61,503 nt of DNA, filler included, from Stramenopiles sp. TOSAG23-6 (GCA_900128565.1; 4 parts of 4 records of this genome joined end to end with filler, not necessarily neighbours in it), one strand, 5' to 3'; shown: positions 15,331 to 53,939, counted from the first letter of the whole stretch. A program made the numbers and translations. Notes: generated from the sequence alone by a model not told the origin.

Positions 15331-15430
15331 NNNNNNNNNNNNNNNNNNNNNNNNNNNNNNNNNNNNNNNNNNNNTTAATTAATTAANNNNNNNNNNNNNN
15401 NNNNNNNNNNNNNNNNNNNNNNNNNNNNNN
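15331..15430. other. Artificial contig spacer
   Basis: N-run with the six-frame-stop linker TTAATTAATTAA. Confidence 0.95.
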
Positions 15431-15449
15431 GTTTCCGATCATATTTTTT

Positions 15450-21400: not shown

Positions 21401-24400
21401 GTGGCTTGGTAAAGTTGTATCACACGTACACACAACAGATCAATACTATAAAATAGTTTTTCAGCCCGATTGGCCTCTAGGCGTATATGACATTGTGATT
21501 AAAGCGTATAAAGACAAAGAAAATCGATATACTGGAAGTTGCGTACCTCCTTTAATCCATTCCTTTACGCTAAACATGGCACAAATTAGCATAATAAGAA
21601 ACAACAACGATGATACAACATTGAAAAGTTCCGCGGCTAACGGGAAACAACACACCCGACGTCTTGAAGATAAAGCTTATGAAGCTTGGCGGCAAGACTG
21701 CGGGCACACCATAAAATGGCGTATACCTGATATTACTCCCGGTACGGTATCTGTGTATTTGTGCAGAGAATCCATACACAAATCGCCCGAAACAAAAATT
21801 TCAGGATGTTTATTGATTACAAAGAACATGCCAAGGTCAACAGGAGAAATTGTTCTGTTTCATAGCAGCTTAGCGCCGAAACCCCCGCCGTCTACAATAC
21901 ATGACGAGGGTCGTGATAATAGACGACATCTTTTCGATGTTCGTGCATTGGTGGTCGGGGACTTTAGACATAAAAAATATGATCGGAAACACCCAGGTGG
22001 TTATGCCGTTAATTTAGACGTCGGTGAATTGTATTATATGAGAATTGTACCAGGCGAAGAAGACGCATCATGCATCAATCCAGATGAATTACCGATTATC
22101 ATAGATAGCTACAAAATACAGGAGTCACCTGAATATACTTACCAACAAAGCTCTTCCAATGATGAAAGTAATTGGCTCCGTCATCCAAAAGAAGAACGTC
22201 GACCAAATCGACCAATAAGATCGTCAGGGCGCCGAGCAGACCGACCAGTAAGAAGGGGAGGGCGCCGAAGGCTGGTCTCAACTTGTATTATTCCTGGGTT
22301 AAATGTTTTCGAAGGTGGAATTGATTACACAGTTCCGGCACCTGCTCCAGTTGTAGTCGATCATAGTAAAATAGTTACAAAGAAAGACAAAACTTCTGCA
22401 GATTCTTATGTACGATATGTTACAGTATTTGGCTTTCGCGTCAGAGAAAGCAAAAGGAAACAAGCTGTAGCTATTGGCATTGCAATTATTGCTGGTTTCA
22501 TTATTTCCTTCATTCTTTGTTTATACCGGATTCTAGGTTGTCTCCTCCAAGGTAAACACAAAGATGTTAAAAAAGATGATTCACCACTTGACCATATGAG
22601 GGACAATCCACTCATGCTTTCTACACAAAATCATAAATCTACAGAAGAGTTACAAAAATTACACTTCTCCAAGGCATTTAACGAACACCGAAGCTACGAT
22701 AATAATGCCCGCACGGCAGTTGAAGAAAAACGTAAACTACTACTACAAGAAAAAGAAATTTCATATGTAGATGTAGGTGTAGTAGCAGCACAAGAAGCTA
22801 GAGACGTTGCAGGTAGTTTGTACAGTCAGGTAACAGCAGCAGGTATCGCTGTTGCAGAAATTTGTGCACGAAACGGCAATGATATTTCGGACACCGCAAA
22901 ACTTGTTACCCAAGCCGCACAGCAAGCAGGTGGCAACGAGTTCGAAATATTTGAAACTGTTGGTATTTCTGCATCTTTCATTGGTCTTAATAAAAAGGAT
23001 TCTTTGGCTAACATCGGCCTCTCCGCGGCAAGAATAGTAGAGCGAATCGGTGGACCAAGAGTCGATATTATTTTGGCCGCAGCCAGAGCATCTGCATATG
23101 CGTCAAAAGCAAGGAAACACAAACCTATTGAAGTAGGTACATCTGCTGCTGTTGCCGCTGCTGCAGCTGGGGGCACTGTTGCTGAAATTGCTAAAATAGC
23201 TGGCGAGACAGCCGGACAAGCTGAAATAGAGTCCGGTGGTACGTACCTAAGCGCAGGGAAAGTTGCCGCAAAGGCTGCAAGTAAATCAGGTGGAACTGTT
23301 GCAGAAATTATAGCTGCTGCTGGAGCCGCAGCGGGAGCAGCTGCAACTGCTGATGGTAAGTTAGGGCATGAGGTTGGCGCAGTGGCCGCAAGTTCGGCAG
23401 TAGAAGCAGGTGGAAGTGTTGCTCAGTGTGCCGAAGCTGCAGGACTTGCTGCAGGTATATGCGAAACCCGAGGTGGTGGTATAACAGTAGAAGTTGCCAG
23501 TGTTGCAGCTAGAGCAGCCATTGCAGCCGGAGGAGTACGTAATGTAGTTGCCCAAGTCGCTGCAAAAGCTGCTACCATATCAGAGATGCAATACAATTGT
23601 ACACCTATCGAGGCTGGTGTTGTTGCGATGGATGCGGCCGAAGCAGCACTTGGTTCGGTTCCATTAATTATTGCAGCTGCTGGCGAAGCAGCCGCATATG
23701 TCAAGTATCGAAAAGGTGGAATTGCAGCAGCTTGTGGATTAGCTGCAATGAAAAGTGCTGAAGATGCCGGAGGTACAGCAACAGAGATTGCAAAGGCTGC
23801 TGGTATGGGAGCCGCAATGGCAAAGATAAACAGAGGCAAATCTTCAGTATCGACTGGCAGTGCCGCTGTAAAGGCGGCTAAGGCTGCCGGGGCAGACCCA
23901 CAGCTTGCGGCGTACATTGGCGGAATTGCGGCAGGTTTATCACAAATTATCAAAGGTTCATCCGCTTCAAAGGCTGGTGTAGCTGCAGAGAAAGCATGCA
24001 GGGCTGCTGGGGGTGATGTGTCAACCCAAGCATCGGTAGCTGGCGAATCAGCTGGATTATATCAAATTAAGGCAAGTCGATCTGTTAGTACAGTTGGGAT
24101 ATCGGCTGCTAAAGCTGCAAAAGCAGCTGGTGGTTCAAAGAGGGACATTGCACTAGCTTCTGGGAAATCTGCTGGTGCAGCCGAGTCTGCTCTTGGGAAA
24201 CCACCCGAAATAGCTGGGTCATCTGCTGCTATCGCAGCTAAATTAGCTGGTGGGTCATTGGCTGAACAAGCTGCAGCCGCAGGCGCTGCAGCAGCTGCAA
24301 ATATTGCTGGTTATGGAACCCACGCGGACGAAGTCACAGCGGCTGGAAAAGCTGCTGGTGTCGCAGCAATGTTAGCTGGAGGAACCACTGATGCTTCCGG

Positions 24401-26471
24401 TTCCCATGCTTTTAAAGCAATTGCTGCTGTTGGGGGTACCGACGAAGAAAAAATTGTGGGTGCAGGTGCTGCAGCAGGAATTGCAGCCTCCTCTAAGGGC
24501 CATTCACCTCTGACAGCTGGAAAAGCAGCAGCTTCTGCAGTAAAACTTGTTGGCGGAGGCCATAGTCAAATTGTAACAGCTGCAGGAAAAGCCGCCGGAG
24601 TCGCTCAACAAATGAAGCACGGGACGCCCGCTGAATCTGGTGCAACAGCAGCAAAGGCAGCTAAAAGAGCAGGGGGAAACATTGATGAATCTTGCCAGTG
24701 CGCAGGCAAAGCAGCTAGCGACACAGTACTGGTTCGTGGTGGGTCCCAGGGTCTGGCTGATGTCGAATCGGCTAAGGCGATTGAAGCAGCTAGAATTGCA
24801 TTTAATTCCGATGCTTCGTTTGACCATGTCAACTTGTCCAAAGAAGATCGCCAGCTATTGAAGAATGCAAAGGGCATGATAAAAGATGGTACGATTACTT
24901 TCCCTGAGTATCACGAGATGGAAAGGAAGTTTTTCGCCAAAGCAAAACGAAAAGGGAGAAGTTCCAAAAAGAAAAAAAGAGGCATCGACGCCTCGTTCTT
25001 CACCAAAGATGAACAAGATGCGTTGAAAAATGCGGAACAAATGTGGAAAGACGGTTTAATTTTGCCTGAAGAGCTTGGTCACATGCGAGAGTTAATATTT
25101 ACCAGCGTAGAAGAGCGTTCCGGAAGGAAAATCCCCGACCAAATACTTAAGGATATCGATACGGATGGGTGGGCCACTAAGCCACATCCATTGGAGGTTG
25201 CGTTAACAAAGCCGCAACCAGCTGAAGAAACTGAGAATTTAGCAATACTGGTGAGTGCGCGACGTATGTTCCAAGAGGGATTGATCTCCAAGGAAGAATT
25301 AGACGACCTTACTTTGACAGTAGAGAGTAAAAAGAAGGGTGATCCAGAATCGAAGAAAATAGACTTGGTTGATAAAATGGTATCCCTGTACGTTAAAGAA
25401 CACAATGGAAATCTGCCATTATCAACTGAACCCAAATCATTTACTATGTTTTTTGGGAAGCGATTTCCCGAAGCGAAGGTTAAATCAACAGAATTAGAAA
25501 TGGCTTTAAAGCGGTATAAATCATCACACAAGGCTGAGCTTCAGAGACATGCTTTTGTTGCTGAGAGAAAGAGGAATCAAACACTCGCAGTAAAAGCTGC
25601 AGACGCTGAAGACATGCGCCGCAGCGTTGAAGGAAATAAGCAAATGACAGATGCGGAACGAGCTACTTTTATTAAGAATCAGATACAACTCATTTCTAAA
25701 GCTCCAAAAGACACACACCCCCCGCCACCACCACCACCTACTGATTCAAACATACAATATGTACAAAAGGCAAAAACACACAGGAGGCATAAAAAACATT
25801 ACANTAAAACAAAAAATGATGGAGAACTACCAAAATACGACGGTGAAAATTTCCCCAAATCCCTTGAGAAAGCACTATCAATGTTTGAAGAGCACTTCAA
25901 GCGTTATCCTAATGATGCAAAGGAATTACATGGTTTTGTTAAATCTCTTTACAAGTTAAAACATAAACATTTGACTGCTGATTTTTCATATTCTAATTGC
26001 GTAGCTGTTTGGAATGCCAATATTAAAAAGGCACATTTAAAAGCAAAACTAAGGAAATCATATGAAAAAGAACAAAGAATAAAAGGGAAAGGTGTAAATA
26101 CCCCGGAAGGTGCACTAAAGCTTTTTATGAAAGAGCATGAAGGATCTCCACCTGTTAACTCTCAAGTACTTCTTGCTTTTGTTAGAAGCAAAGATAAGAA
26201 GACATCATTGACATATATTCAATTAAAAGAGTATCTAAAAAAATACAAAAGAAAGGGATCAATTAGAGAAGAAGAAGAAGAGAAAGAAAGTAAAAATTCA
26301 AACAATAGAAAATTGACGGCTACTGGAATGATCGAACTATTCAAGAAGCAACATAGTGGAAGTTTGCCTTCAAGCCCTCAACTTCTTAAAGCGTTCGCTA
26401 AGCAAGCAAAACCAGAGCTAGATTTAGATTATTCAGATTTAGCAGCAGCATTACTTCTTATGAAGAAATAA
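15450..26471 (+). CDS. Giant single-pass surface protein (probably 5'-truncated): TNFR/ephrin-like Cys repeats, long beta-rich ectodomain, TM helix, Ala/Gly-rich repeats, SHOCT-like and C-terminal helical repeats
   Basis: 3673-aa uninterrupted ORF; CxxCPxGxF repeats; TM AVAIGIAIIAGFIISFILCLY. Confidence 0.85.
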   Translation: MSKVPDHQCTHIKSCPVGEELQKCTPASDTTCIPCKENMVKLSTGLGKCKPCAPKLECKGMNMSFKKCTNSTEGFCSPCTYELGSCLAGTIPTKCNTCEPCPENTFAIRGSNYCEKCTPSSRVKCLAGEVKVKCSKTQDTHCTACPEGKYIEEDSKIGAKCKECVKPRPCGIASTFHKCFGGYSGGCQSCTNEIKEPTYITKIEGKYQCRRCTQQNCKVGFEFEACSAHSDSKCKRCPKGTWSNGNISKCEACKTPLCKRGHGPIACTAERNTVCSICEKGKFSDGTSACQECTHPLCQAGYHVVPCTTTHDSSCRKKACGRSAHMYYKSSIDEDVVNSVLMYPLDVFPPNHPLVNGDMTCSQMFKPLTNLPILAKSRRNCVKDLNAMELLIADGWPLQNSKFALKANSNWMFWNQDLDEQNYFVFGLTPGESMTVNISIDASESLEDGEFLKAEYFNSEIYPNIKPKFEWNKCSVKKVKSHENCFAWNASTGKGTMQWYLEKPNNIEVSALIIGPFPDRRSCFKINYSLGTLNNLSTYKFMEWDSISAVLKPKEFSYQAVQNGIKICLDKKDCPDFHHYTSDTVNTITKTKSGYKWSSQFSLWLPAVRKKEHFNRKLAADETDDEVAGVDDLNSKDVLVLTKSISNILQEVSDYASSQTDMHIVGISRSVVQTTENLTLYEIKYSVSMPGNKYKEVTSSFAGLIQTGRFQTELKKQGHEAGISTFSLLNADEICCLHILDGTRKISSAHLYEGKPRWKGISSSLSWKTSPNECNLLSGYCDVHFELTNTYMECAWDDPECGALPKCCHDKTNPSLCEKEDPRTGVTNPICGEGNFALPGNFDFGDGSPPKDLSKKDSPRGVFKYYDAEMGYTTFTTKLKHTYSVTENIGETTFEATFIDTRGRLISCGSNLKSSEICTRSSGGSQFGSWTKVRIRKAQQLSKEGIHYPDDFSSPISNISPIISVFIGDEQLIPISAFDSSSSGLLFRLSSNDEVSSSNSAILKALGLQFLNGPQLTNSKGQRGMNPLIQSTGSHGYIKWDTTDMPAGLYPIRVTIMDGSGNESATEFTIRLVDTIFGCSPGCPSDSIEEKTKCTKSCTNDSQCECGSCLPLPRPQIKGIRTIITPPKCDMILNNISSTTSDTLISVVKTNVLPDNAVFIPGEPSNPRASAVRWTPKMSSGGESFHIEMHASICHGENSQGIESIPFTTKIHVPSVPMQLVIRPFHDLRLCESLIGKLTWTDVGAAMGLHNTFDIDICPHKNPKEFKNGGCINIDTNIQNACKIGPSENAGLCSLQHANSLLGALKKQAEKWKIPQRMENIPYIIRISSSRFKSCQRSVRSQPFNIIFPAVDITFVIPTITDVCNGYSLMRTCKTQVVISSLVQQHNVKLELCGSDVSRNTPCHFLETRSIPQGTSNFAFIVPDYDTTMKLGLGNVLYLRASSPCAKPSDSTAFEVYPPPVMDVLNSKFFENSKLYKGAVYSIHMRIATKMLVDNIDNRGLTLHICKDDNICEAFTRSKTSSNANIITEGISFSYFTENITDVKLSWAVPSVFVPGNYKFKIGFANKFCSPKKIIPFSVSSKWPSDSLKLISPIESRDLYYCNSGVLKWKVREELKGVLLNITADMIPNTGDRFKLIRKSTSNDIIEFDEIFYGNNVSKGAIVITLGVANEPLKSLVPKLKASFTLASIGTKANAGNAIRIIEPSNGDRWEHCKDQKVEWVANLFPSKGFSIYICKPNWDGSKCASKKDIVVLATGVMETEFTVESLNSEWIGPYILGVTPTGDLESKCITPSYVKIIFSTMYIDDNELFRIGGPLPETTFNLQNPNKDSSVKFENCRSYNAMWAGTDEFELSIEMCPTLKNKCVTLPFDPSDDLVGLHKNILHSKITLPSQTNLGQGEYDISMIGYKKGSNRTGGKCMTSKSVRIPITKYRSRDRPMKMQLFHIGKAIQRCDTAEFPWYLGDLVKSADITVTYNKYNSESNKSWLGKVVSHVHTTDQYYKIVFQPDWPLGVYDIVIKAYKDKENRYTGSCVPPLIHSFTLNMAQISIIRNNNDDTTLKSSAANGKQHTRRLEDKAYEAWRQDCGHTIKWRIPDITPGTVSVYLCRESIHKSPETKISGCLLITKNMPRSTGEIVLFHSSLAPKPPPSTIHDEGRDNRRHLFDVRALVVGDFRHKKYDRKHPGGYAVNLDVGELYYMRIVPGEEDASCINPDELPIIIDSYKIQESPEYTYQQSSSNDESNWLRHPKEERRPNRPIRSSGRRADRPVRRGGRRRLVSTCIIPGLNVFEGGIDYTVPAPAPVVVDHSKIVTKKDKTSADSYVRYVTVFGFRVRESKRKQAVAIGIAIIAGFIISFILCLYRILGCLLQGKHKDVKKDDSPLDHMRDNPLMLSTQNHKSTEELQKLHFSKAFNEHRSYDNNARTAVEEKRKLLLQEKEISYVDVGVVAAQEARDVAGSLYSQVTAAGIAVAEICARNGNDISDTAKLVTQAAQQAGGNEFEIFETVGISASFIGLNKKDSLANIGLSAARIVERIGGPRVDIILAAARASAYASKARKHKPIEVGTSAAVAAAAAGGTVAEIAKIAGETAGQAEIESGGTYLSAGKVAAKAASKSGGTVAEIIAAAGAAAGAAATADGKLGHEVGAVAASSAVEAGGSVAQCAEAAGLAAGICETRGGGITVEVASVAARAAIAAGGVRNVVAQVAAKAATISEMQYNCTPIEAGVVAMDAAEAALGSVPLIIAAAGEAAAYVKYRKGGIAAACGLAAMKSAEDAGGTATEIAKAAGMGAAMAKINRGKSSVSTGSAAVKAAKAAGADPQLAAYIGGIAAGLSQIIKGSSASKAGVAAEKACRAAGGDVSTQASVAGESAGLYQIKASRSVSTVGISAAKAAKAAGGSKRDIALASGKSAGAAESALGKPPEIAGSSAAIAAKLAGGSLAEQAAAAGAAAAANIAGYGTHADEVTAAGKAAGVAAMLAGGTTDASGSHAFKAIAAVGGTDEEKIVGAGAAAGIAASSKGHSPLTAGKAAASAVKLVGGGHSQIVTAAGKAAGVAQQMKHGTPAESGATAAKAAKRAGGNIDESCQCAGKAASDTVLVRGGSQGLADVESAKAIEAARIAFNSDASFDHVNLSKEDRQLLKNAKGMIKDGTITFPEYHEMERKFFAKAKRKGRSSKKKKRGIDASFFTKDEQDALKNAEQMWKDGLILPEELGHMRELIFTSVEERSGRKIPDQILKDIDTDGWATKPHPLEVALTKPQPAEETENLAILVSARRMFQEGLISKEELDDLTLTVESKKKGDPESKKIDLVDKMVSLYVKEHNGNLPLSTEPKSFTMFFGKRFPEAKVKSTELEMALKRYKSSHKAELQRHAFVAERKRNQTLAVKAADAEDMRRSVEGNKQMTDAERATFIKNQIQLISKAPKDTHPPPPPPPTDSNIQYVQKAKTHRRHKKHYXKTKNDGELPKYDGENFPKSLEKALSMFEEHFKRYPNDAKELHGFVKSLYKLKHKHLTADFSYSNCVAVWNANIKKAHLKAKLRKSYEKEQRIKGKGVNTPEGALKLFMKEHEGSPPVNSQVLLAFVRSKDKKTSLTYIQLKEYLKKYKRKGSIREEEEEKESKNSNNRKLTATGMIELFKKQHSGSLPSSPQLLKAFAKQAKPELDLDYSDLAAALLLMKK

Positions 26472-29739: not shown

Positions 29740-30752
29740 TCACCAAGGGAATAACAGTGGGTTAGGGTTATCACCTTTCTTATTTTCACTAGTAACATTT
29801 CCCCCCAACAAAGGATTTACTAACCACTTTTCAAATGCACCTACTGACGCATGTGTCGTAGTTTTGTTATAGGGCATATCAGCTATTCCATTTGGTATTG
29901 ATTTATTACATTGCTCTTCAAAGTATTTACTACAAATAGAACATTCACCTCCTAAGAATTTGCCAATATTACCCTTGGCTAGGGAATCGCAAGCACCAAC
30001 CGTTTTAGAAAAAGTTAAAACACATTCATTACATATTGTATTTTGAGTTGTTGATAACTGAGTTACATTCTGGTTATATGTAGGGTTGTCTGGTGGTGCT
30101 CCCCACATTCCATTCTGCCAGCTTTGCATAGAGAGATTATGAACACTCGCCCAATTCGATATTTGCTGAATTGAATTATTTTCACCATTTTTAGTATCAG
30201 GAGAAAAACAAAGATAATCGACACTTATGTGTGCTTCTCCACATGGTTTTATATCTTTCAGAGAGTTATACCAATAAACACCAGCACTCACTGTTTTATT
30301 ACTATCTTCACCAGGACCCACAACTCTCCAATCTTGTTCAAATCCACACTCTTTCATTGTGTGTAATGATACCATGTATTTTGGAAAAATATTTCAAAAA
30401 AAAAACTAAAATTTGTTAGGTACAACATTTCGTACGAAAAATAAATTCGAAATTGAAAAAAAATCAAACATATATACACCTTCCTTTTGGCAACCCATTC
30501 GAACATTCTTCATCTTTAAATATATGCTTTCTACAAGATCCATTTTCCTGGTTGACTGGAAGTTCTGCTAAGTTATCCAAGTCCAAATTTGTTGAAGATG
30601 AATCATCAATATCCGCTACAAAAGGCATCACATGTATTGTGAAAAAATCACGAAATCATGAAAAATATCGTTAGGTACAAAATTTCGTACGAAAAAACAT
30701 AAATTCGAAATTGAAAAAAATAAAACACACATGATTACTGAAACATAAATCT
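29740..30752 (-). CDS. Hypothetical Cys-containing protein, 5'-truncated; exons 30752-30731, 30631-30474, 30373-29740
   Basis: Frame continuous after removing two family introns. Confidence 0.7.
30374..30473 (-). mobile_element. Family intron, donor position ATATGT, ends AT, 100 nt
   Basis: GRCM|VSLH; a GT..AT register shifted by 4 nt is also in frame. Confidence 0.75.
30632..30730 (-). mobile_element. Family intron, GT..AT, 99 nt
   Basis: GTGTGT donor; CATGTG direct repeat. Confidence 0.8.
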
Positions 30753-30852
30753 NNNNNNNNNNNNNNNNNNNNNNNNNNNNNNNNNNNNNNNNNNNNTTAA
30801 TTAATTAANNNNNNNNNNNNNNNNNNNNNNNNNNNNNNNNNNNNNNNNNNNN
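30753..30852. other. Artificial contig spacer
   Basis: N-run with TTAATTAATTAA. Confidence 0.95.
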
Positions 30853-30906
30853 GTACGAAAATTTGTACCTAACGATTTTTTTTTGAAATATTTTTCCGAA
30901 ATACAT
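30853..30906 (+). mobile_element. Family intron, 3' half at contig start, ends AT
   Basis: Core plus CCGAAATACAT. Confidence 0.8.
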
Positions 30907-34086: not shown

Positions 34087-35382
34087 TCAGAAACCCATAT
34101 CTAAAAGGTATGCTTTGTAAATGGACATAAATTGAGCAACAAATGCTTCTAGATGAAAAATTACTTTGCTCCCATTCTGCAAATTATCAGCATAGTGTGC
34201 TGCCCAACGGCAAACTTCTGGCTTTAAATCTCCATCAGTTTTCTTTAAAAGTTCGATCGTCAATTGTCGTAGAATAATATCTGCTGGAATACAATTCACT
34301 AAAAGTTCGTATAATTTCTTGCGTACTTCCAATAGACGACGAGGAGTCTGTTCACTCAAAATATCAGTAGCCAATACTGCAATAAACTGTTGCCAGTCAG
34401 AACGGGCAATCGGTTGAGTTTTTTCAAATGGGTAACATCTGACTCTGCAAGCCTCTATGGTTAGCAATGCTACACGCATATTACGTTCACTTTGACGAGA
34501 AACACGCATAGCAAGTTCTTCGGGTAGTTTTAATTGTTCACGACGGCACACTTCNGAAAGAACTTTGCAAAGATCTTCATCACTTGGAGCTGCAACACGA
34601 ACAGCCAAGCAACGAGAACGAACAGGCTCAATAACACTTGATAAACTCGTGCATATCAAAATTAGTCGACAAGATGCGGCATACTTCTCCATTGTTCTAC
34701 GAAGAGCGTGCTGTGCTTCACGTGATAAACTGTCAACTTCAGTCAAAACTAAAACTTTGTACGCTGGTTTTGATTTTCCTGATTCAGTGGTTGTTGTGGA
34801 AGTATTTTGCTGCGCATTTAGCGATGCTAGAAGACCTAAAGAGCGATACTGTGCCATATCCTTGATAACTTCTTGAACTACAACACGATCATGGAACCCC
34901 GCATCTCCAGGGTTAAGCTCTGTGTGGTAGTTAGAACCGACGGAAGAAATCTCAACTTTTTTACCGGAAGGAGTTTTATACGACAATTGCTCAACTTTTG
35001 TTTTTGCAACACCAGGTCCAAATAATTCACGAAGTAGAGCATGTACGCGAGTCTTTTTGCCTGCACCAGAAGGTCCATAAAAAATCATATGTGGAATATC
35101 TCCTGTGGCTGCGAGGGTAATAAGTCGCTCGGATAACTCAGTATGGTAATCCATCCTACCAAGACGTTTCGGTCGGTGCTTATCTAACCAAAGCTTTTTT
35201 GGGGTATATATGTAAATAAAAGTGCATCATGATAAGTATAACTTTCATTATTACAAGAATATATTCTTTTGTGTATACTATTCGTGATATTCACGCCAAG
35301 ACATCGTGAAAGATAAAGTTGATCTCGTAAGGTTAAAAAAGTGTGAAAGACAAAGATGATGTATGTGTATAATACGTACCAT
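34087..35382 (-). CDS. RFC3: Replication factor C subunit 3 (yeast Rfc5 orthologue); exon 1 = ATG (35382-35380), exon 2 35193-34087
   Basis: M|LWLDKHRP, PHMIFYGPSGAGKKTR, AQHALRRTMEKY, SRC, IFHLEAFVA. Confidence 0.93.
35194..35379 (-). other. Conventional GT-AG intron after the start codon, not of the family
   Basis: ATG|GTACGT ... AAAAAG|CTTTGG restores MLWLDK; no family core. Confidence 0.75.
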
Positions 35383-35725: not shown

Positions 35726-36469
35726 ATGCGTAGAGAATATATCAATCTTGCTGGTCTCCGTACGGATGGTAGGCGACCACATGAGGTACGTAGAATCCGC
35801 ACTCGTATGGGTGTCCTCCCTCATGCTGATGGCTCTGCGTACTTTCAAATTGGAATGTGTAAAGTCTTGTGCGCTGTCTTTGGCCCGCGTCAAGCTGTTC
35901 ATAGAGGCCTTGAACTTCATGATCGCGCTATTGTAACATGTACCCACTCTTCAGCATCATTTAGCTCTACTGAATATCGAGAAAAACGTCGTGGTGGAAC
36001 GGATCGTCATAGTATAGAAATCCAAGATACAGTTCAACAATGTTTTGCGACAGTTCTTCGTACGAAAATACACCCAAGATCACAGATAGACATTCAGCTT
36101 CAAGTTTTACAAACAGACGGTGGACAATTATGTGCATGCATAAATGCAGCTACTCTTGCTCTGGCTGATGCTGGAATTCCTATGAATGATATGATCGTTG
36201 CATGCTCCGCTGGTGTGCTCGATGGAACTTTTGTCACGGATTTGAATTTTTTAGAGGAGTCATCGGGAAATCCTGTTGTCCCTATTGGCTTACTTGCTAG
36301 GTCAGATAAAATCTCTATGGTAAAAATGACGTCTAAAATACCACTTGAGAAGTTTGAAGAATTATTAAAGCAAGCACAAGGTGGATGTAGACAGATATAT
36401 CAAATAATACAGGGTGTCGTTCGTGAGAGAGCAACAAGACTACTCAGTGCCAGAGGTATTGTTGGTTAG
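35726..36469 (+). CDS. RRP41: Exosome complex component Rrp41 (RNase PH family)
   Basis: GLRTDGRR, ADGSAY, PRSQIDI, DGG...CINAATLALADAGIPM. Confidence 0.93.
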   Translation: MRREYINLAGLRTDGRRPHEVRRIRTRMGVLPHADGSAYFQIGMCKVLCAVFGPRQAVHRGLELHDRAIVTCTHSSASFSSTEYREKRRGGTDRHSIEIQDTVQQCFATVLRTKIHPRSQIDIQLQVLQTDGGQLCACINAATLALADAGIPMNDMIVACSAGVLDGTFVTDLNFLEESSGNPVVPIGLLARSDKISMVKMTSKIPLEKFEELLKQAQGGCRQIYQIIQGVVRERATRLLSARGIVG

Positions 36470-37042
36470 GGTTAGGGTTATACAGTCCATGGAAGAACAA
36501 ATAATACAGGGTTCGTGAGAGAGCAACAAGACTAGGAAGTCGTCCCCCCTATACCGACCACTTTTGATTTTGTACGAAAATCCGTACCTAAGCAAAAATT
36601 CGCCAAAAAATCATGTTTCCTATTCCGACCACCCTTAGGTACGGATTTCTCTATATCTTTTACTTCATATGAAATAGTGTATTCAACCTTGTGAAACTAC
36701 ATGATATTACTCACTGGGATACTAGTGCGCATGATAAATTGGAATACAATGTCTTAAAAGGCATTTATGCATTTCATTTTATGTTGTTTAGGATGATAAT
36801 TACTCTTGCTGACTAAATATTTTGAAGGACTTTGCTAGAAATATTGTCAGAAAGTGCCAAAATATATAAGAACTTTTTTTTTTTTGATCGATATTTTACC
36901 GATCTGCGCATTAGGTACAAAATTTCGTACCAAAAAAAAGTGGTCGGTATAGGATTCGGTCGGAATAGTAAACACAACTTCCTACTCAGTGCCAGAGGTA
37001 TTGTTGGTTAGGGTTAGGGTTATACAGTCCATGGAAGAACAA
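36401..37042 (+). repeat. ~100-bp tandem duplication of the RRP41 3' end; second copy carries a 5-nt deletion and the MITE
   Basis: 36401-36500 is repeated as 36498-36534 plus 36983-37042. Confidence 0.9.
36535..36982. mobile_element. Non-autonomous DNA transposon (MITE), 448 bp, TA target duplication
   Basis: TA|GGAAGTCGT...ACAACTTCC|TA; subterminal inverted repeats CCTATACCGACCACTTTT...GTACGAAA..GTACCTAA; empty site AAGAC-TA-CTCAG at 36436-36447. Confidence 0.9.
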
Positions 37043-37413
37043 GAACAAAGAGACGAGCCTCGTGTAGAGTATTTTTGTTAAATAGTGATAGTTTAACTCA
37101 TGGTCTTGTTTATCTAAACTAATGTTATCATTCTATTTTTCATTCCTAACATTTAAAATTTAAAAAGTTATAACTCCTTTTTGTTAGAAAAAAAAAAACT
37201 TGAAGAAGAGAGAATTTCTAAATTTTCGTGTTTTTTTCAAACTTTTTTTTTTTTTTTTTCTTGACCGTCGATCCAGCGATCAGCGCATTTTCGTTTTACC
37301 TCGTCCTACTTCTTAAACGTTTAACAGTATCTTATCAATAATACTGTCTTTTCTATTCGACAGTGCAACTACCATTGAGAGCTTGATTTTTACCTTGATT
37401 TGTACATAGAAGA

Positions 37414-39341
37414 ATGGGAAATGATTTTCAATGTTGCCGTCCAAGTAAAGAGGAAGATATTCCTTATTCTCTACTCGATAATCCAGATGACACCAATGGC
37501 AACTGTCACTTCTTCATTAAGCCAAAACAAAAACAGAGTAACATTTGGGATTTTGATTGTTACGACTTATCGACACCGCTCACCAAAAATGTGATTTGGC
37601 CGGATGATCCTATATTAAAAAGTCCATTTAGGAAACCATTTGATTTCCAAGTGTATCAGAATTCACCTGGAGCGAGTCAGGGAAAACTTCCAATGCCAAG
37701 GCATGGGCACAAACAATTATGGTTGTATATACGTAAAACTTCAGACAATAATGCTATTGGTGAAAATAAATATGACATTGAGAACTATGCTGACCCGGAT
37801 CAAAAACAACCAATCATCCGATCACAAACAGTCAAAGGTCAAATCTTGGGCTCAATAAGAGAAAGTGTACATTTTAACAAAAAAAATATAACCCTAACCC
37901 TAACCCTATATAATATACGAAAATTTGTACCAAACAAAAAAAAATTTTAAATATTTTTTCACATTACATGTACATATTAAAAATCTAGATGCTTCGCCTG
38001 CAACAGCAAAAGTGAGTACAACTGAAATAGATTTTGATCGTGCCACGCAATGTATTCGAGAAGCAAATAAATTAATAATTCGTGGAAATCAGGATGAAAA
38101 AGAGTATTGTAAATTCAGTAGATTTCAGATCACTTTTAAATATGTGATAGTATGTGGTGGGTCAAAAAAAAACAAAAAAACTGTTACATTTGAAGTGCAT
38201 GCAATTGGAGTTGTCGGCCAAGTTCCTTCGGCAACTTCAAATACATTCACACAACATGTAGGTTGCCATTATACTGTTGTCCAAAAAAAAAATTACTAAA
38301 AAAAAATAACCCTAACCCTAACCTAACAAAAAAATCAAAAAAAAATATTTTTTCACGATATCGGCGGTATTAGCAGGACTGCCCTGGGCATCTATTGGTA
38401 GTAACTCTAAAATAGAACCAAGTGGTACCACAGAGACTCATGACGTATCCAAAGGACGAAATTGGAATATCAGCATTACTCTTCCAATAGATGTATGTTT
38501 TCATCATTCGTTTCAATTTCGAATTTATTTTTTTTAATTTTTTTTTTAATTTTACGAAAAAAAAAATATTGCACCTAACGAATTTCAAACTTTCAAAGAT
38601 ATTTTTTTACATTGTCTCCTATTCAATCTACATTAAAGACAAGATTATCCGCAGGAGGTGGTGCAAATGCTCCACAATCTTCATCACTCGCAGATATTTT
38701 AGCTTCACGTCACGAAAAAACAATTAAAAATACTAAAAATACTAAAAATACTAAAAATACTAAAAAATCTCATAGAATTTGTGTAGCATATAAGAAAGTT
38801 GCAATACCTTGTGCAAGATTGGGAGATTCGCCAACGGAAAGAAAATTATCGTGGAATGAAAAACACACTCTAAAAGTTGACGATAATCCCGGTACCGCTT
38901 CTCAACCAAAAAATAGTAAATTATTGAGTTTTGCTGTTGGTTTCTGTATGATTAAAGCAGATTTAAATTTATATGAGTCATTACTGATTCGTCATTCAAG
39001 TGTACGTTTTGCATTTCATTTTTTTTTTTTTTTTTTTTTGGTTTTCGTACGAAATTTCGTACCTAACGAATTTCAAATTTCTGAAATATTTTTTCACAAT
39101 ATTTGGTGGTGTTATTAAACCAGATTGTTTCAGAGAAGATAACATTTTAAGGCAAAAGATATTTTCAAGTACTGGTGGTGCTCTTGAATCTGTAAGTAAT
39201 ATCAGTGTGATAAAAAATAAAACAAAACAAGAGGTAAAGAAAGCGACAAAACAAGGGGTAAAGAAAGCGACAAAACAAGGGGTAAAGAAAGCGACAAAAC
39301 AGGAGGTAAAGAAAGCGACACAAAAAATAGTAGATGTTTGA
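37414..39341 (+). CDS. Hypothetical protein (MG-start, possibly acylated), 5 exons (37414-37866, 37970-38257, 38364-38492, ~38618-39001, 39105-39341)
   Basis: Four family introns, all phase 0; MGNDFQCC start; KKATKQ(E/G)V repeats at the C-terminus. Confidence 0.7.
37867..37969 (+). mobile_element. Family intron, GT..AT, 103 nt, with internal CCCTAA repeats
   Basis: IRES|VHIK; TGTACAT direct repeat. Confidence 0.8.
38258..38363 (+). mobile_element. Divergent family intron, GT..CG, 106 nt
   Basis: CAT|GTAGGT donor; AAATATTTTTTCACGATATCG end; core replaced by AACCCTAACCCTAACCTAAC. Confidence 0.65.
38493..38617 (+). mobile_element. Divergent family intron, GT..CT (acceptor uncertain by 3-6 nt)
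   Basis: GAT|GTATGT donor, GCACCTAAC; no in-frame AG at the consensus position. Confidence 0.6.
39002..39104 (+). mobile_element. Family intron, GT..TT, 103 nt
   Basis: RHSS|GGVIK. Confidence 0.8.
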
Positions 39342-39728: not shown

Positions 39729-41096
<1,368 letters not shown>

Positions 41097-42629: not shown

Positions 42630-43029
42630 ATTAAACTGCTCAACTTTGATTTCTGCAATTTTTTCACCTTGGCTTTTTATACCAATAAAATATAGCAATT
42701 TAAACTTTTCTACTTTGATTGTTATAGCAATCGTGTAATAGTCAACTCATTGAATATTATTTCTATAGAGAAGTATGTAATTTACGATAATTGATAATTT
42801 TGTAATTTTTTTTCTATTATTATATATTATTTTTTTACGACTCAAAATTAGCAGGTTTGTGTGTGGGTGTGTCGAAGATTTTTTCTTTTTCATGGTTCAG
42901 AATCTCAGATTCTTTTTCAAATAGACACGTCGACGTTGCTACAGCTTTTGGTTGAAGTCTCGTACTACTACATTATCTGTTACGTTTGGTGCGTATACTA
43001 AATACCTTGTTCAATTGTTTGAATCAAAA

Positions 43030-46000
43030 ATGATAAAAGGCATATATCTGCAAAGAATAGATGGTTCTGAAATATACTTACCTCATATCCACCACAGTCC
43101 TGGAGATCTGGTCAAGAAACTCAAAGTAAACTTGATTAAGCTAGGACACGCACATGCAGGACACACTCAACTTACTTTTGGACGAAAATCTCTTGAAGAT
43201 GACAAAACACTTGGATTTTATGGTTTACAATCTGGTAGTGTCATTGCAGTAGAATCCACACATACATCATCACATTTGGATGTGTGTATCCATTCTAAAT
43301 CGTATGAATTAACCAGACTCAAAAAAGAATGTAACAATTTACGACAAAAGATTGACGATATGTCACTCCTATATGACTCCCAGTTAAAGCAAAAGAATGA
43401 AAATGTAAAGTCTTTTTCTGAACGCCATAAAGAAATACAAATAACAAAAATATGCACGCGCACGATATTTAGAAAATCCGTTGATAACTTTGCGTATGGG
43501 TTAAATATAAAAAATACAACAAAAGAAAATAACAAATATAAAACTGTAACTGTATACAACGGAAATCTTGTAAATGAGTTTTATATGTACAAAACTTTAG
43601 ATAAAAAGTCACAAGATGAACGTTCATACCACAGTAAAACATTTGATGAAATAGGTAAAGAGGCGATTTTATTTTGGGATCTTCTTTGTGACCGTGTCTA
43701 TTTTTATCAAACTAAAGATACAAACGATAAAGAGAATTCGAAAAAAAATTCAATTTGGCCTTCTCAGGCTCTTCTATCAGAGGCTTTTCAATATAACCAG
43801 AAGAAGCTTATTCTTAGACTATATGATCCATCCAAGTATAAAATAAGAGAAAGTAAAAGTTCCGAGAGAATAAACTATCAAAACTATAATAGATCAAATA
43901 AAACCCAAAAGAAAAATACTTCCGACAACATCAATATATTAAAAATTGCAGATAATTTTAATAAAGAAAATGCAAGCCTTGGATTACTTTTAGCAAATGA
44001 TGAGAATGAAAACGTCGTTAAAAGCAGTACAAATGCGTTAAATGGTAATACTAATAATTTGAAAACTAAAGAAACAAACAATGATGATGTACGTTTGATA
44101 TGAATTTCTAATTTAAGTTTTTTTTCATACGAAATTTCGTACCTAACGATTTTTTTAACTATTTTTTTTTTTTCACAATACATGTCCATAGTGAAATTGA
44201 AATGGCTCAAAAAAGCTTTACTCGACAGAAACGTCGTCGTATTAGAGTTGGACTCTGTACAATGACAACTGCTTTTATTTTTGTGATTATTTTACTCTGG
44301 AATGACGTATGTTTTATTTTTTTTTTAATGAATTTTTTTTTGTACGAAATTTTGTACCTAACAATTTTTTTTAGATTTTTTTTTGAAATATTTTTCCAAA
44401 ATACATGGACATAACATTTCTAGTTCTTCTGGGGTAAATAATGATTTTATCAATAAGCTTAAAAGTAAAAGTATTGACATTGATTATACAAAGGAAAAGG
44501 AAGAAATTTGGGAATGGATAGATAACAGTAAAACTATCGAGAATGGAAATTTAGTCACTTTTGACAACGAAAATTATAAAAAATGGACTTTATTTGGTCC
44601 TGTGTCATATACACAACATAGAGGTCAAGGTTTACTTAGTTGTATTACTGAAAAGGCTTTTGATGCTACAGAGAACCCTAATTGTCGATTATGTTCAGTG
44701 TACTGCCAATCAGAATTTGGAACGAATCAGTCGGTAAGTATGTTTTTTTTTTTCAAATTCGATTTTTTTTCATACGAAATTACGTACCTAACGATTTTTT
44801 TTTGAAATATTTTTCCAAAATACAACGTCTTTTGGTGCTTGGTGGTTAACACCTTTTACATTTGGAGGAAAGAAGACTTTGTCATTAGAACAAGAAACTA
44901 TTGGTATTATCGCAGACTATGGTTCAAAAGGCTTTCGTAGATCATCTTTTCCTGGGCAACTGCCTTTAGAAAAAGTGTATCATGATTCAGTATGGGAACA
45001 AATGAAGGTAGATTGGCTTGATGAGTACACCCGAGCAATATTTATTACTGCTTCTACATATCATCCAGCTCTCAATTTGTTAACAAAAATACAATCTGGT
45101 ATTGAAATGTCTGTGGGTGGAAATTCAGTATCAAACTTAAGTATTGATTCAGTTTTTTTAGATGATAGAAGTTCAAAAATCAAAATTATTTCATTTCTTC
45201 TTTTACCCATTGTAGCTATTTCACTAATCATGTATGTTTTATTTTTTTTCAAATTTGATTTTTTTTCGTACGAAATTTTGTACCTAACGATTTTTTTTTC
45301 AAATATTTTTCACTGCTCATAGATGTGATGCACTTGTTAGAAATCATTGGCTTACGATATCGTTACGTTTCGTCATATTTTTGGAATACGGCAATATGGC
45401 ACAACTTTGCAATTTATATCTTTATTTCGGTCTATGTATTTCATGAATTAAAAATCGATTCAGATCTTAAAATTCTTCAAGGAGATTGTGTTAAAATTCT
45501 TCTTAGACAAAATTACTTCAATGAAATTCTTAATGACCAAGAAAAGATCATTTACAATGAAATTCTGACAGAAAATGGACCTAAAACAACCTTGAATACA
45601 AGTATTTGGTCCCAAAAAGCACAATTAAAATGGGAAATTTGGTGGAACGAATCTAGAATAAAGGATTTTGATACGAATCTGCAAATGACTATTAACTCGT
45701 ATGAAAGGACTATCTCAGAACATAAACTAAATATGAATAATAATCTTACAGGAATTTCTGTAGCAAGACAAGTACAAGTACTTTTACTATCAATTTCATT
45801 CTATTTGATATTTATGAAATTGTACAGATTTCTCTTTAGAAGAAAAATATTGAAAAAAACAAATATTGAAAAATCAAAGTCGAAAAATGATTTCAACCGC
45901 GATATTTCAATGTATTTTATAATCGTACCGATACTATTTATATTACTACTAGTTGTACTCGCCGTATCTTTTATTTTGTGGATTGATATCAATGGACATA

Positions 46001-46080
46001 ATACGTACTTTAAAAATTTTTCAGGAATTATTATCGGTACATTGATAGGATTGTGTAGTAGTAAAGGGGGTATGGATTAT
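43030..46080 (+). CDS. Ubiquitin-like domain plus polycystin (PKD/TRPP)-like membrane protein, 3'-truncated; exons 43030-44088, 44184-44306, 44407-44737, 44826-45231, 45321-46080
   Basis: LTFGRKSLEDDKTLGFYGL (Ubl); WLDEYTRAIFITASTYHPALNLL (polycystin motif); several TM helices; phases consistent. Confidence 0.7.
44089..44183 (+). mobile_element. Family intron, GT..AT, 95 nt
   Basis: NDD|VHSE; ATGT direct repeat. Confidence 0.85.
44307..44406 (+). mobile_element. Family intron, GT..AT, 100 nt
   Basis: WND|GHNI. Confidence 0.85.
44738..44825 (+). mobile_element. Family intron, GT..AA, 88 nt
   Basis: AA|GTATGT...TACAA|; QSVT|SFGAWW. Confidence 0.8.
45232..45320 (+). mobile_element. Family intron, GT..AT, 89 nt
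   Basis: SLII|DVMHL; the AG 2 nt downstream is out of frame. Confidence 0.85.
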
Positions 46081-46130
46081 GTATGTTTTATTTTTTTTTC
46101 AATTTCGAATTTATTTTTCGTACGAAATTT
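46081..46130 (+). mobile_element. Family intron, 5' half at contig end
   Basis: AT|GTATGT plus TTTCGTACGAAATTT. Confidence 0.8.
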
Positions 46131-46230
46131 NNNNNNNNNNNNNNNNNNNNNNNNNNNNNNNNNNNNNNNNNNNNTTAATTAATTAANNNNNNNNNNNNNN
46201 NNNNNNNNNNNNNNNNNNNNNNNNNNNNNN
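46131..46230. other. Artificial contig spacer
   Basis: N-run with TTAATTAATTAA. Confidence 0.95.
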
Positions 46231-49200
46231 TATAATTCCTGCTCTTCCAAGAAGACTAAATCAGCGTGATTTTGTGAAGGCTATAAAATGGACTCGTAAA
46301 ATTGTACAAGATGAAGGACATGTTATGCCTCAGTTACTTCATATATGGAGAATCATTACTCGCCATCCTCGTCTTTTTTACCCTTATCGATCTGAGTTTA
46401 TTTTGCATATTATTTCATCCTTAAACCGATTTGGTCTCTCTCACAAAGTATCTAATGCAAATAGACGTCTCGCCTTAGATCTTGTACATCTCATTATAGC
46501 ATGGGAAATGCGACGAAGGCTTCGATTCGATAATCATTCGCGTCGGAAAAGAAGTCATGATCGTGCGAATGAACCACTACGGAAAAATCCAAAGTTTAAT
46601 TCTCTTAGAAGATGGGGTTTGTCATCGAAAAAGGCTAAAAGATCTAAGATTATTGTTGGTAAAGAAGTAGTAGGTGCAAAAACGAAAGATTCTACTGAAG
46701 GGTCAGTAGTTGTAGAAAGTAGTGTAAAACAGTCTGTTGGTGTTGTTGCTGGTGTATTAGAAACATTGAGAAAACATAAACGTAAGCATGTACCTGGTAG
46801 TGCTTTTATTAAATCTATTCGAGCTTCGATGCTTTTAAATAAAAAGACAGCAACATCTAAGCGGAAAGTAAAAGTTAAGGGAAAGCAGCGTTTGAATGTA
46901 AAAAGTCAATCAAAAGTGAATTCTCGTAATAATGCTTCACAAGTCAAGAAATCTCAGAAAACTTCCGAAAAAAATGCTCGACAAATGGAAAAGATTCCAC
47001 AGCAGAATAGTGATGCTGTCGATAATTCTCTGAATAATAGTAACAAAACTCTCTCTCATGAAGCTCCATCTGGTCCCACAGAATCTATTAAGAATGAAGG
47101 TGATTCCGCAAAAACTGTTGATTCCCCTTCGAAGAAAATTCCAAATAATGTTCCAACTAAAGAAACTTCGAAGACACCAGTGACATCACAACAACAGTCA
47201 AAACAAGGCGTTAAAGTAGTTTCAGCATCAGTTGCTCATGCACTCGCAGTTGATGTGTTTGAACCGAATTCTAAAATGGCTCAAATGTTGGTAGATTTTC
47301 TTGTTAGGGTTTCACTTGTCACAGTGACATCTTCAACTGGTGCACCTGATATTGTTGAGAGAAGTTTGAGACTTTTACGAATTGCGTTGATATTATGGAG
47401 TAAAACGAATATTACTGTTTCTGATCTTGATAAAGTCTTACCCGCTGTAAAATCTCAAGAAAAAAATGCACAGAAAGTCAGTGGTTCTGTACGTGCATTG
47501 AATGACCTGAAGTTAGCAAGGGCTAGGGTTGCAGCTGCAAAATTGAAGAAAGACCAAAATGCCCTTATTCTTGCAAAACAAGCTGAAGCGAAGGCAAGAG
47601 CTAAAGTCAATTTGTCACAGGCCATGACTCCTTCTTCAGGAAAAAAATCGGAAACAAAGCGTCCTTCGCGTCTTCTATTGTCTACTATATTAACTCTGTT
47701 GAACGCAGTAGTGGATGCTGGTCGCAACCCATTTGAAAAAAATGCCACTGTACGTGCCGAGAGAATCCTTTCATATTGTTTTCTTACGGATTCACCAAAG
47801 GTCCAAATTCAATTGCGAAAGCTCATCAGTCAAATGATGAATAAGTTTAGTCATCGTGATCAAATTTTAGACACTGAGAGAAGTATATCATTTAGTGATC
47901 AATTACGAATCAGTATTTCATCTTCATTGAAGGTGCATAGTCGATTAGGTGCTACTACTAATTCTTCAATTGGTGGCCTTGATTGTGATTTTAGTTTATT
48001 GAATAATTCTCAATTTTATTTTAAATCATTTGTTGCGACAGACGCGTTGCTATTTTTATGTCACGAAATACCAAGACAGTGTGATCATTATGCTGACGCT
48101 CTTGTAAAATTAGCTGTACAACTTACTACTGGTCATTTAATGCATATACGAGCTCTGAGAGTGAATGAGAGAAAAAAAATGTATACTGTAAAGGAAAGTC
48201 CTAGTATAAGAAGCTCACCAGCTAAGAAAGGGAAAAGTCGAAAAGGAGAAATCAGTAAAGCCTCAGGAAGAAAAACTGGATCAAAAAAGAGTAAGTTGTC
48301 ATCCCCTAAACATAGTTCGAAATCAGCGAATAAGTTGAAGAAGCCTATATTGAAAGTGGAGCCAATCTTACAGAAACATCCGACGTTAGTTCTTGCTACT
48401 TTGAAAAATACGATAATTTTACTAGGAAATCGAATTCTGAGACTACCAAAGCAGAGGTCTGAATTTTTTTCAGTGTTGTTTGCAATTTTACGAGATTCGA
48501 GTGACTTAAGTTTATTGAATATAGTATTTGATTTAGTAGATGGTTGGCTTGCAGATCAATCATTGATGGGTCAATCAGAATTAAAAATGTTTTCACGAAA
48601 TGTACGTAAAGAGAATACCCCACCTATTGATGTGGTACAGGATGAAAAAAAAACTACTGAAGAAAGTGGAAGCATTGTCGTTGGTGTTGTAGAACCTGTA
48701 TCATCTCAACCAATTGCTAAAAATAGAAGTGATGAAAAGAGTGCAATCAAAATGGGTTCAGACAGCTCATTGAAGAGCAATATCAAGCCTTGTAAAGCAA
48801 TGAAGTGTAATAAGATTATTGTACCTCTGAACTCGTCAGAAAAAACTGCGTTTGTCCGTATAATGCGGGGTGCGATAAAGCATGCTTTGGTGCCTCCTGA
48901 TACAACAAGCAAACACGCGAAGAGATCGAAAAGTAACTCAAAATCAACGAAAAAGTTGCAAGGAATTGCAGGTGTTGAAGCAAAATTAAATGATAGAAAT
49001 GTTGATGTATCAATTAGGCGTGCTAAAATAATGAAGCGATACTTGAGTATAGTTAGGCACTTACTCGATATGGGACACGGTCCTCTACATCATCCAAAAT
49101 CTCTTCATTTTGGTGGTAAACTTGCTACGTATCTTCGGGATGCTTTAGTGCTTGGTTTGTTATCACCTGACGAAGAACAACGCAAAATATTTTTTAGTGA

Positions 49201-52200: not shown

Positions 52201-53939
52201 CGACGTTGAAGCGTGTATGTCGAAAGTTCTTTGCTGAATCAACGAGTATAAAGAGCCCTAAACATCGACGTTTTGTCATGGCGTATAAAGAACCTTTTGA
52301 AATGGATTTACTACCGATACTTAACGATGTTGAATCTCCTGAGAAATTATCTCCCGGCGAACAGAGAAAAAACCCGGAATTTCCATCAACTTTAGAAGGT
52401 GTTATTAATAACCTCAGACGCTGGAAAATATTTCTTCGCTGCCGTGTGCGTGAATTGCCTTCAGTCGTACGGATGCATAGTAGTAGTAGATATCTCGCAG
52501 AGTTTTGTTCCCATTTGATTGAAGTACCTGGTCAATATATCGAAGAAAGAGAACCGAAACCGAAATTACATGTGAAAGCCCATCGATTTGAACAAGATGT
52601 ACATGTGTTGCATCGTCATGGTTTTTCACAACGTCGAATTGGTATTCTCGGTTCTAATGGGAAAAAATATTACTTTTTAGTTCAATTTGCTATCCCTCAT
52701 ATCACGCGAACCGACGAGCGAATGGTGCAGCTTCGTGTATTTTTCAATCGCCTTTTGAATAAGCATGAAGAAACTAGACGCCGCAGCCTCACATTCCATT
52801 CGGATGCAGTAGTTCCTATAACCCCTAGAGTTCGTCTAGTTCGCGACTATACATCTTCCACTTCACTCGAGAATATAGTAGCACAATCTTTGGCTACTCG
52901 ATCTCGTGCGAAGGAATTAAATTTGTGTATGCATGATACAAATAGCAATGATTATACTATAGAAAACGAGTTTGTTGATGCAGATGAACCTATTATGGAG
53001 TTTAGGAAAATTCAAAGGATGCTATTAGATAGCGAGGCTAATAAGAGTGACTCTTCTAACTCTTCCAAAGAAACATCACAAAGCAAACATAAGTTGCGTG
53101 CTTTTCGCCAAATATGTAAAAAAATGCCACCTGATATTCTTCAGAGATTTTTAGCACGATCAACAAAAACTGTTGATGAGTTATTTTCATTACGACATAC
53201 TATGGCTAAACAACTCGGTTTAAGCTCCTTCTTGTGTAATGTTTTATCAATAGGTGACCGGGTACCTCATCGCTTTGGTTTGTCACTAGCAACAGGAACT
53301 ATAATTACTTCCGAATTTCGACCAAACTACAATCATAATGGATTATTAGATACGAGGGAAGCAGTACCTTTCAGACTGACGCGAAATCTTCAAGTTGCAT
53401 TGGGTGATTTTTTAATTGATGGTGTGATGAGTTCAGCCATCGCTACTACAGCAATGTGCTTGGAGTCGCGTAAGGAGTTGGTGGATGATTACTTACAGCT
53501 TTTTATGCGAGATGATTTATTATCTTGGCATGCGTCCAAGACCCCCCCGAGAAGTGAAAAGGCTGAACGCGCAATGCAGTCTCATCTTCAGGAACGAGTT
53601 GAACGAAACGTTCAATCATGTCTTGCAAATATTTCTCGTCTTGTCCCGAATCACAAACCAATGCCTCGAAGTTTATTGCGAACAGATGATGCTCTTGCTG
53701 CATCAGTTGCTGCTGTTCGACAGGCTCGGTTTGCTTTAGAGAAGAAGAGAAATGGAGCTGAATCTTTTCATAGCAGCTGTAATTCTGCAATTGGTGGCGG
53801 TGTAGGTGGTGCATTTGGAGCTTGTTCCACTGCTACTGCAAGCAAGGCAATAGATAGAAATGTATTTGCATTAATTGCTGCAGCTACAAATGAAGATAAT
53901 TTGTGTCAAATGCCTGCAACCTGGCAGCCTTGGTTGTAG
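46231..53939 (+). CDS. TRRAP: TRRAP/Tra1 (PIKK pseudokinase), 5'-truncated; exons 46231-49878, 49972-50109, 50201-53939
   Basis: WTRKIVQDEGH, FAT-domain motifs (TWRERLPNKWE, WIPQLL, YPQSLYY), EAVPFRLTRN, FATC end LCQMPATWQPWL. Confidence 0.95.
49879..49971 (+). mobile_element. Family intron, GT..TT, 93 nt (3n, stop-free)
   Basis: TTGT direct repeat; removal gives VLEGL|LHAPFP. Confidence 0.85.
50110..50200 (+). mobile_element. Family intron, GT..AT, 91 nt
   Basis: ACATGT direct repeat; ERDM|CRDALE; removal required to keep the TRRAP frame. Confidence 0.9.

Follow-up and report, generated by a model that had tools for sequence, protein, structure and literature searches.

The window analysed here, a stretch of 61,503 nucleotides (filler included) from Stramenopiles sp. 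TOSAG23-6, holds at positions 36535-36982 a non-coding element of 448 bp, bounded by terminal inverted repeats of 9 bp and a 2-bp TA duplication and carrying in both arms a block homologous to the central T-run and core of a family of introns in the same window. The element is a MITE, a non-autonomous DNA transposon with terminal inverted repeats, and was inserted recently by a 2-bp staggered cut at TA; it is ordinary of its kind, and what is unusual is the block that it shares with the introns. Our tentative reading is that the MITE and the introns are two distinct non-autonomous families with a shared inner-arm module, relatives or recombinants of each other and not parent and offspring. A MITE that carries the most conserved block of the introns at the same distance from its end is, at this single locus, a concrete lead on the mobilising element.

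Structure, insertion and copies of the MITE

The left border of the MITE reads ...GACTA followed by GGAAGTCGT (36535-36543), the right border ACAACTTCC (36974-36982) followed by TACTCAG; in context, ...CAACAAGAC-TA-GGAAGTCGT...ACAACTTCC-TA-CTCAGTGCC.... The left terminal inverted repeat (+ strand) matches the right one (- strand; ACAACTTCC as read on the + strand) at 8 of 9 positions, and the terminus consensus is GGAAGTYGT. The copies of the TA duplication are at 36533-36534 (left; recognised from the empty site with one TA) and 36983-36984 (right; sequence at the border). The empty target, ...CAACAAGACTACTCAGTGCC..., lies uninterrupted at 36430-36450, about 95 bp upstream, its single TA being 36441-36442. 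Three exact repeats found by a repeat finder tie the flanks together: D1, 61 nt (36440-36500 = 36982-37042); D2, 24 nt (36419-36442 = 36511-36534); D3, 15 nt (36401-36415 = 36498-36512). They describe a tandem duplication with a unit of about 97 bp, the second copy of which contains the 448-bp MITE. Copy 1 as delimited by D1-D3 (36401-36500, + strand) comprises the last 22 codons, the stop codon and 31 nt beyond, with the empty target; aligned over 100 nt, the two copies are identical, a 5-bp indel being the sole difference. Since the empty and the filled copy are identical apart from this indel, the insertion is young. A sequence-only reading of this stretch had proposed a TA-flanked MITE with a visible empty target, and the termini, the TA duplication and the flank repeats bear it out.

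Left and right arm pair as a long, imperfect inverted repeat, at 79% over 66 bp and at 100% over 18 nt. From the outside inward, each arm starts with the terminus GGAAGTYGT, continues with CCTATWCCGACCAC, present once or twice, and then has a T-run and the 20-nt core. In the left arm these are the outer subterminal motif CCTATACCGACCAC (36548-36561, + strand; a direct repeat, with 18 nt at 100% inverted with 36936-36953) and the T-run with a diverged core (36562-36591, + strand; GTACGAAAATCCGTACCTAA at 36572-36591, 3 mismatches). The inner motif CCTATTCCGACCAC follows (36619-36632, + strand; direct and inverted repeats, motif search), and then an inverted partial copy of the left-arm core (36634-36648, - strand), the 15/15 hairpin partner of 36578-36592. 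The internal region (36649-36910) is AT-rich, without coding capacity and unique in the window by BLAST; the longest stop-to-stop frame overlapping the MITE is 64 aa. The right arm holds the core (36911-36930) and T-run (together 36911-36939, - strand), the inner motif CCTATACCGACCAC (36940-36953, - strand; 18-nt inverted repeat, motif search) and the outer motif CTATTCCGACC (36958-36968, - strand), placed by the arm alignment inside a 16-nt stretch lacking from the left arm.

Aligned arm to arm, the termini agree at 8 of 9 positions, the 16-nt insertion with its extra motif is confined to the right arm, CCTATACCGACCACTTTT agrees at 18 of 18, and the T-run and core follow. Similarity between the arms stops at the inner edge of the core (CCTAA). 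On this alignment the T-run and core are the innermost part of the inverted repeats of the MITE, not a one-sided passenger. One strand of the MITE folds as a long hairpin (-62.9 kcal/mol, against -36.1 +/- 4.0 for shuffles, z = -6.7).

The cores described by the sequence-only reading were all recovered, the exact one (20/20) at 36911-36930 on the - strand and the variants at 36572-36591 on the + strand and at 36634-36648, and so was its second motif, CTAT(A/T)CCGACC, said to occur twice at each end. The window has four exact sites of CTATWCCGACC, all in the MITE (36549 and 36620, + strand; 36942 and 36958, - strand), two per end and pointing inward; one mismatch adds a single match elsewhere in the window, giving five in total against 0.63 expected. 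The spacing of the motif differs between the arms, 71 nt against 16 nt.

Motif, terminus and BLAST searches gave no second copy of the MITE within the window. In the contigs of DNA run X1, at a likeness of at least 80%, there are at least two further diverged variants of its internal and right-arm region, and by these variants the family would comprise two or three members at the least, so that the MITE appears not to be single-copy. Of the two outcomes named beforehand as refuting the earlier proposal, a single copy and other copies without the core, neither was observed. One X1 contig is exact over 36571-36938. A second copy (X1 record 3, 404 nt) aligns to 36643-36938 with 12 gaps and 30 letters that differ, its first 102 letters having no alignment to the left arm at a likeness of at least 80%. 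Further X1 variants occur at 36904/36908, with small deletions at 36888-36906, and at 36944 in the right-arm motif; the variant letters at 36896 and 36898 are present again in the independent metagenome X4. The variant contigs flank the core on both sides, the depth at the core being swamped by intron copies. These extra copies are contigs without both ends and flanks, and the TA target and arm structure are those of one insertion.

A metagenome scan for GGAAGTYGT, 2-10 nt and CTATWCCGRCC gave 51 loci, all attributable to chance (0 cores, a single motif, mostly GC-rich); scans of viral contigs gave 0 matches for the intron core and 0 for motif plus core. Pfam found no transposase domain in the 28 ORFs searched of the 42 in the window of at least 150 aa.

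MITEs of the Tc1/mariner-pogo type that target TA (Stowaway-like) are shorter than 600 bp, lack an ORF and have terminal inverted repeats, a TA duplication and hairpin arms. The MITE at 36535-36982 appears to resemble them in size, ends, TA, hairpin and low divergence at a recent insertion, a likeness by general features; it differs in that its TA is seen at one site and its arms hold a block shared with introns. Tc1-like elements of the IR/DR type have two binding sites per long inverted repeat. The MITE may be compared with these, its arms being about 60-75 bp long and containing short motifs in repeated form and, innermost, a distinct element, but the motif spacing is unequal between its arms.

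The intron family and its conserved core

About 30 introns in the window belong to one repeat family, inserted in sense orientation; 22 units with a recognisable 5' end, core and 3' motif were analysed. They start with GTAYGT, the exceptions among the 22 being one GTGAGT, one GTGTGT and one ATATGT, and continue with a T-run, the core and a C, then ...GAAATATTTTTCCAAAATAC or ...TTTTTCACAATAC. The termini are GTAYGT...ATAC, the excised length is 88-149 nt, and none of the 22 units ends in AG. In 21 of the 22 the flanking frames join only upon removal of the element, [GTAYGT...A(C/T)], plus 2 nt, chance being one in three; examples are the introns at 50110-50200, 44738-44825 and 49879-49971 (+ strand) and 13042-13190 (- strand). 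The 2 nt before the element equal the 2 nt after it in 14 of 22 units, against 9.8 for shuffled pairs (P 0.005): AT/AT 12, AA/AA 1, TT/TT 1. Judged by these pairs, the junctions carry the signature of a 2-bp target duplication with a preference for AT, and the introns are predicted to leave the transcripts as the element plus one copy of the duplication. Because of the 2-bp duplication, a GT...NN cut and an NN...AC cut are indistinguishable from mRNA.

The RNA contigs, which were unspliced or stopped at repeats, held no splice joints of the family introns; RNA contig X6 record 23 (38321-38520) continues across an intron/exon border. Joints listed as splicing from the contig alignment were rejected as repeat cross-matches among intron copies. 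A global palindrome of the intron element centred on the core was likewise set aside, both halves having, by eye, their T-runs on the same strand.

At up to 3 mismatches the core, GTACGAAATTTTGTACCTAA, is matched 33 times in the window (0.01 expected), a number reached in 0 of 100 shuffles. Two of the 33 are palindromic shadows, which leaves 31 sites, two of them in the MITE. The 29 others all lie on the strand of the flanking ORFs, and 22 of these were tested as introns; within the window, as far as these 22 of 29 go, the MITE is indeed the only place where the core lies outside a coding intron, as had been claimed. Of the 31 sites, 30-31 agree at core positions 13-20 (GTACCTAA), 21 have G at position 1 and 25 have C at position 4. 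The base right after the core is C in 28 of the 31; the three sites with another base include both MITE copies (G or T after CCTAA). The most invariant part in the introns is the 3' half, GTACCTAA(C), rather than the whole palindrome, an asymmetry more in keeping with a splicing constraint than with a symmetric binding site. We infer that GTACCTAAC is the putative branch site of the introns; the core block ends 27-55 nt ahead of the 3' end.

Several members of the family depart from the common layout. The intron at 30374-30473 (- strand) starts with ATATGT, not GTATGT, and the same length rule joins its frames; it is a possible A-start intron. Those at 12480-12640 (- strand) and 56578-56770 (+ strand) have two cores or two sets of end motifs, which gives them the look of partial copies of the intron element, set in tandem or nested. 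N-filled gaps at 30700-30852 (267 N in the window) truncate the family introns at 30671-30690 (- strand) and 30853-30872 (+ strand). In the intron at about 38268-38366 a CCCTAA run takes the place of the usual core and itself supplies CCTAAC.

The structure of the window introns points to an introner-like family with a non-canonical 3' splice site. Introners are transposon families that create introns and are mostly non-autonomous, according to the portions compared of PMC11282704, Gozashti et al. 2022 (PMC9860276) and a 2025 paper by the same first author (PMC12130899), and about 72% of them are unclassifiable in the part compared of the last (PMC12130899). So far as those portions go, the window introns are introner-like in their many near-identical short copies, genic position, sense orientation, short duplication, weak inverted ends and restored frames, and differ by having no 3' AG; the MITE itself, at a non-coding site and without terminal splice signals, is not an introner. 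Fritillaria borealis, Amoebophrya, euglenids and diplonemids have non-canonical introns whose junctions carry repeats, whose ends can pair and for which an origin from MITEs has been proposed, according to the portions compared of PMC11282704, PMC7789003, PMC6221363, PMC12621601 and PMC13326754. The introns of F. borealis are there mainly AG-AC/AG-AT (PMC11282704, PMC13326754); those of Amoebophrya have repeats of 3-5 nt and no general link to a transposase (PMC7789003). For introns of these four kinds, the origin from MITEs is presented in the parts compared as a hypothesis without an identified transposon (PMC6221363, PMC7789003, PMC12621601). Set beside what those parts describe, the window introns are similar in lacking a GT-AG pair and in having short junction repeats and inverted ends able to pair; they differ in that a good GTAYGT and a strong TACTAAC-like GTACCTAAC at 27-55 nt from the 3' end go together with a 3' end other than AG. 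Because of this good 5' end and strong block, a spliceosomal route is plausible for the window introns.

The block shared by the MITE and the introns

An nhmmer profile built from 14 introns matched the right arm of the MITE with its positions 31-61 (of 64) at 36941-36911 (E 3.5e-8) and the left arm with positions 31-64 at 36561-36594 (E 7.1e-6). The 5' and 3' ends of the introns had no profile match in the MITE, and its outer 37 nt are without significant similarity, so that common descent of whole arms finds no support here; a resemblance of 36838-36868 to the intron 3' end, seen by eye, was below significance. By BLAST of the MITE against the window, 36911-36939 agrees at 28/29 (96.6%) with five introns and slightly less with many more, and no other part of the MITE is repeated elsewhere in the window. 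The termini GGAAGTYGT and the CCTATWCCGACCAC repeats are absent from all introns of the window, and the intron termini GTAYGT...ATAC are absent from the MITE, which is unlike the introns also in lying outside coding sequence, in its 448 bp and in ends devoid of splice signals.

Both families make 2-bp duplications, that of the MITE, TA, being known from one insertion (n = 1), for which reason the difference between TA and AT counts for little in either direction. GTACCTAA starts 49 nt from the left end of the MITE and 64 nt from the right end, or 48 nt without the extra 16 nt; in the introns it starts 46-61 nt from the end in 20 of 22 units, the full spread being 46-101 nt. The families differ in abundance, a few MITE variants standing against about 30 introns in 61 kb. 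The introner and non-canonical-intron literature compared (passages and abstracts; supplements may list more) contains no case of an intergenic MITE that shares just the central block of an intron family.

On the reading that we tentatively adopt, the MITE would owe its mobility to a transposase that acts in trans and recognises the termini as well as the CCTATWCCGACCAC repeats, its candidate binding sites, and the introns would be a separate non-autonomous family with their own ends and their own, mostly AT, duplication. The module of T-run and core would have become common to both families through common descent or recombination; in the introns its 3' half, GTACCTAAC, would be kept by selection as a branch site, and in the MITE it may be an inner protein-binding site or a relic. 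As far as the alignments can tell, relatedness of the two families is favoured by the mirror placement of the block in both arms, by the coincidence of arm edge and block edge, and by the equal spacing. The abundance gap and the near-consensus right-arm block (28/29, in arms that are 79% alike) fit the capture of an intron fragment equally well.

Such a capture would have been passive: an intron element, or a piece of an intron-bearing gene, would have entered a progenitor of the MITE, been trimmed and been copied to both arms, without a role there. We consider this possible, if rather unlikely. Since introns outnumber the MITE variants by orders of magnitude (29 core sites in 61 kb; a very large depth of the core in X1), intron donors are everywhere. 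The confinement of the similarity to 29-34 nt, the contrast between block and arm agreement just given, and the base after CCTAA, which in neither arm is the C of the introns, also speak for it. A fragment taken up by chance accounts poorly for a block that is mirror-placed in both arms with the homology between them ending exactly at its inner edge, for a distance from block to terminus, 49 nt, that falls within the 46-61 nt of the introns, and for the lack of any intron terminus or other intron sequence alongside. Were the block captured, the MITE would be an ordinary one, yet it would show sequence of the intron family moving into other repeats.

A bolder account, which we think unlikely as a whole, would join both families in one lineage of transposons that make 2-bp duplications, with the 29-bp T-run and near-palindromic core as its putative inner binding site. 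One branch, the MITE, would have kept classical ends and an intergenic position; the other would have gained GTAYGT...ATAC and invaded coding regions, giving rise to tens of thousands of introns whose splicing does without a 3' AG, the binding site turning into a branch site. If this were true, the locus would tie a non-canonical intron family directly, at the molecular level, to a bona fide inverted-repeat transposon, and would be a handle for finding the enzyme behind the introns.

The sequence-only reading had gone further and made the MITE a candidate parent of the introns, without taking descent as proven. In this model the MITE, or an autonomous master of it, is the parent, with the core as transposase site, one enzyme for both and CCTAAC co-opted as branch point. 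We regard this as quite improbable. One part of it stood: the core is integral to both subterminal inverted repeats. The 20-nt block is, moreover, conserved across intron subfamilies beyond the 5-7 nt that a branch site needs; both families have 2-bp duplications and the same spacing from core to terminus; by eye, 5-6 of 9 positions agree between the MITE terminus and the intron 5' end, a match short of significance; and the recent activity of the MITE implies that an active transposase probably exists. Descent itself was not supported, for neither the termini nor the CCGACC motif, the better candidate for a binding site and absent from all introns, is shared. Mobilisation by the same transposase found no support in a profile match limited to T-run and core, nor in the 28 of 42 long ORFs, none of which encodes a transposase; a search for intermediates linking MITE ends and introns gave none in the window. 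Against parentage stand also the conservation of the core, asymmetric towards its branch-site half, and the distance from core to terminus in the introns, which varies from 46 to 101 nt.

The locus and its surroundings

The MITE lies in the 3' untranslated or downstream region of a full-length gene for an RNase PH / Rrp41-like exosome subunit (35726-36469, + strand; Pfam RNase_PH 1.9e-31, RNase_PH_C 6.6e-11). The stop codon of this gene, TAG, is at 36467-36469, the MITE starts 65 nt past it, and the next gene begins near 37415. X9 record 31, a contig of polyadenylated RNA from an independent study, equals 36419-36534 with zero differences and ends at the border of the MITE; the tandem duplication is real, because this contig crosses the junction of copies 1 and 2 exactly. 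Record 4 of DNA run X1 (36932-37011) joins the MITE to its right flank.

It is scarcely credible, therefore, that the duplication and insert are a chimera of assembly or amplification or two alleles collapsed side by side, as the N gaps in the window, the small and unevenly covered look of the best-matching DNA data set and tandem copies differing by a 5-bp indel only might suggest, given these two bridging records, the recurrence of MITE-variant letters in metagenome X4 and a clean, TA-bounded inverted-repeat insert at an intact empty site, which is unlike chimeras.

The copies of the tandem duplication (36401-36534 with 36983-37042) are joined at a 3-bp microhomology (CAA). A mini-intron GTATTG...ACAG at 36456-36485 was considered and rejected, as the TAG within it already closes a full-length RNase PH ORF and X9 record 31 is collinear through it. 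In metagenome X4, record 13 aligns over 36982-37197 with 17 unaligned letters in front; it may be an allele without the MITE, and is a hint only.

Telomere-like runs, (TTAGGG)2-3 or the complement, are found at 36465-36481 (+ strand), 37889-37907, 38308-38327 and about 13165-13180 (- strand), inside introns and across the RNase PH stop codon. Rfam had no family at gathering score anywhere in the window. The open frame at 15387-26471 (+ strand; 3694 codons) is without a Pfam match, and its GC of 0.38-0.46 is above that of its surroundings. The TRRAP/Tra1-like gene at 42925-53939 (+ strand) contains at least 6 family introns. Neighbouring genes without family introns are those for alpha-tubulin (39729-41096, + strand), a PP1-type phosphatase (54071-55087, - strand) and an RFC small subunit (34087-35226, - strand); the best relatives of the alpha-tubulin among solved proteins are protist tubulins.
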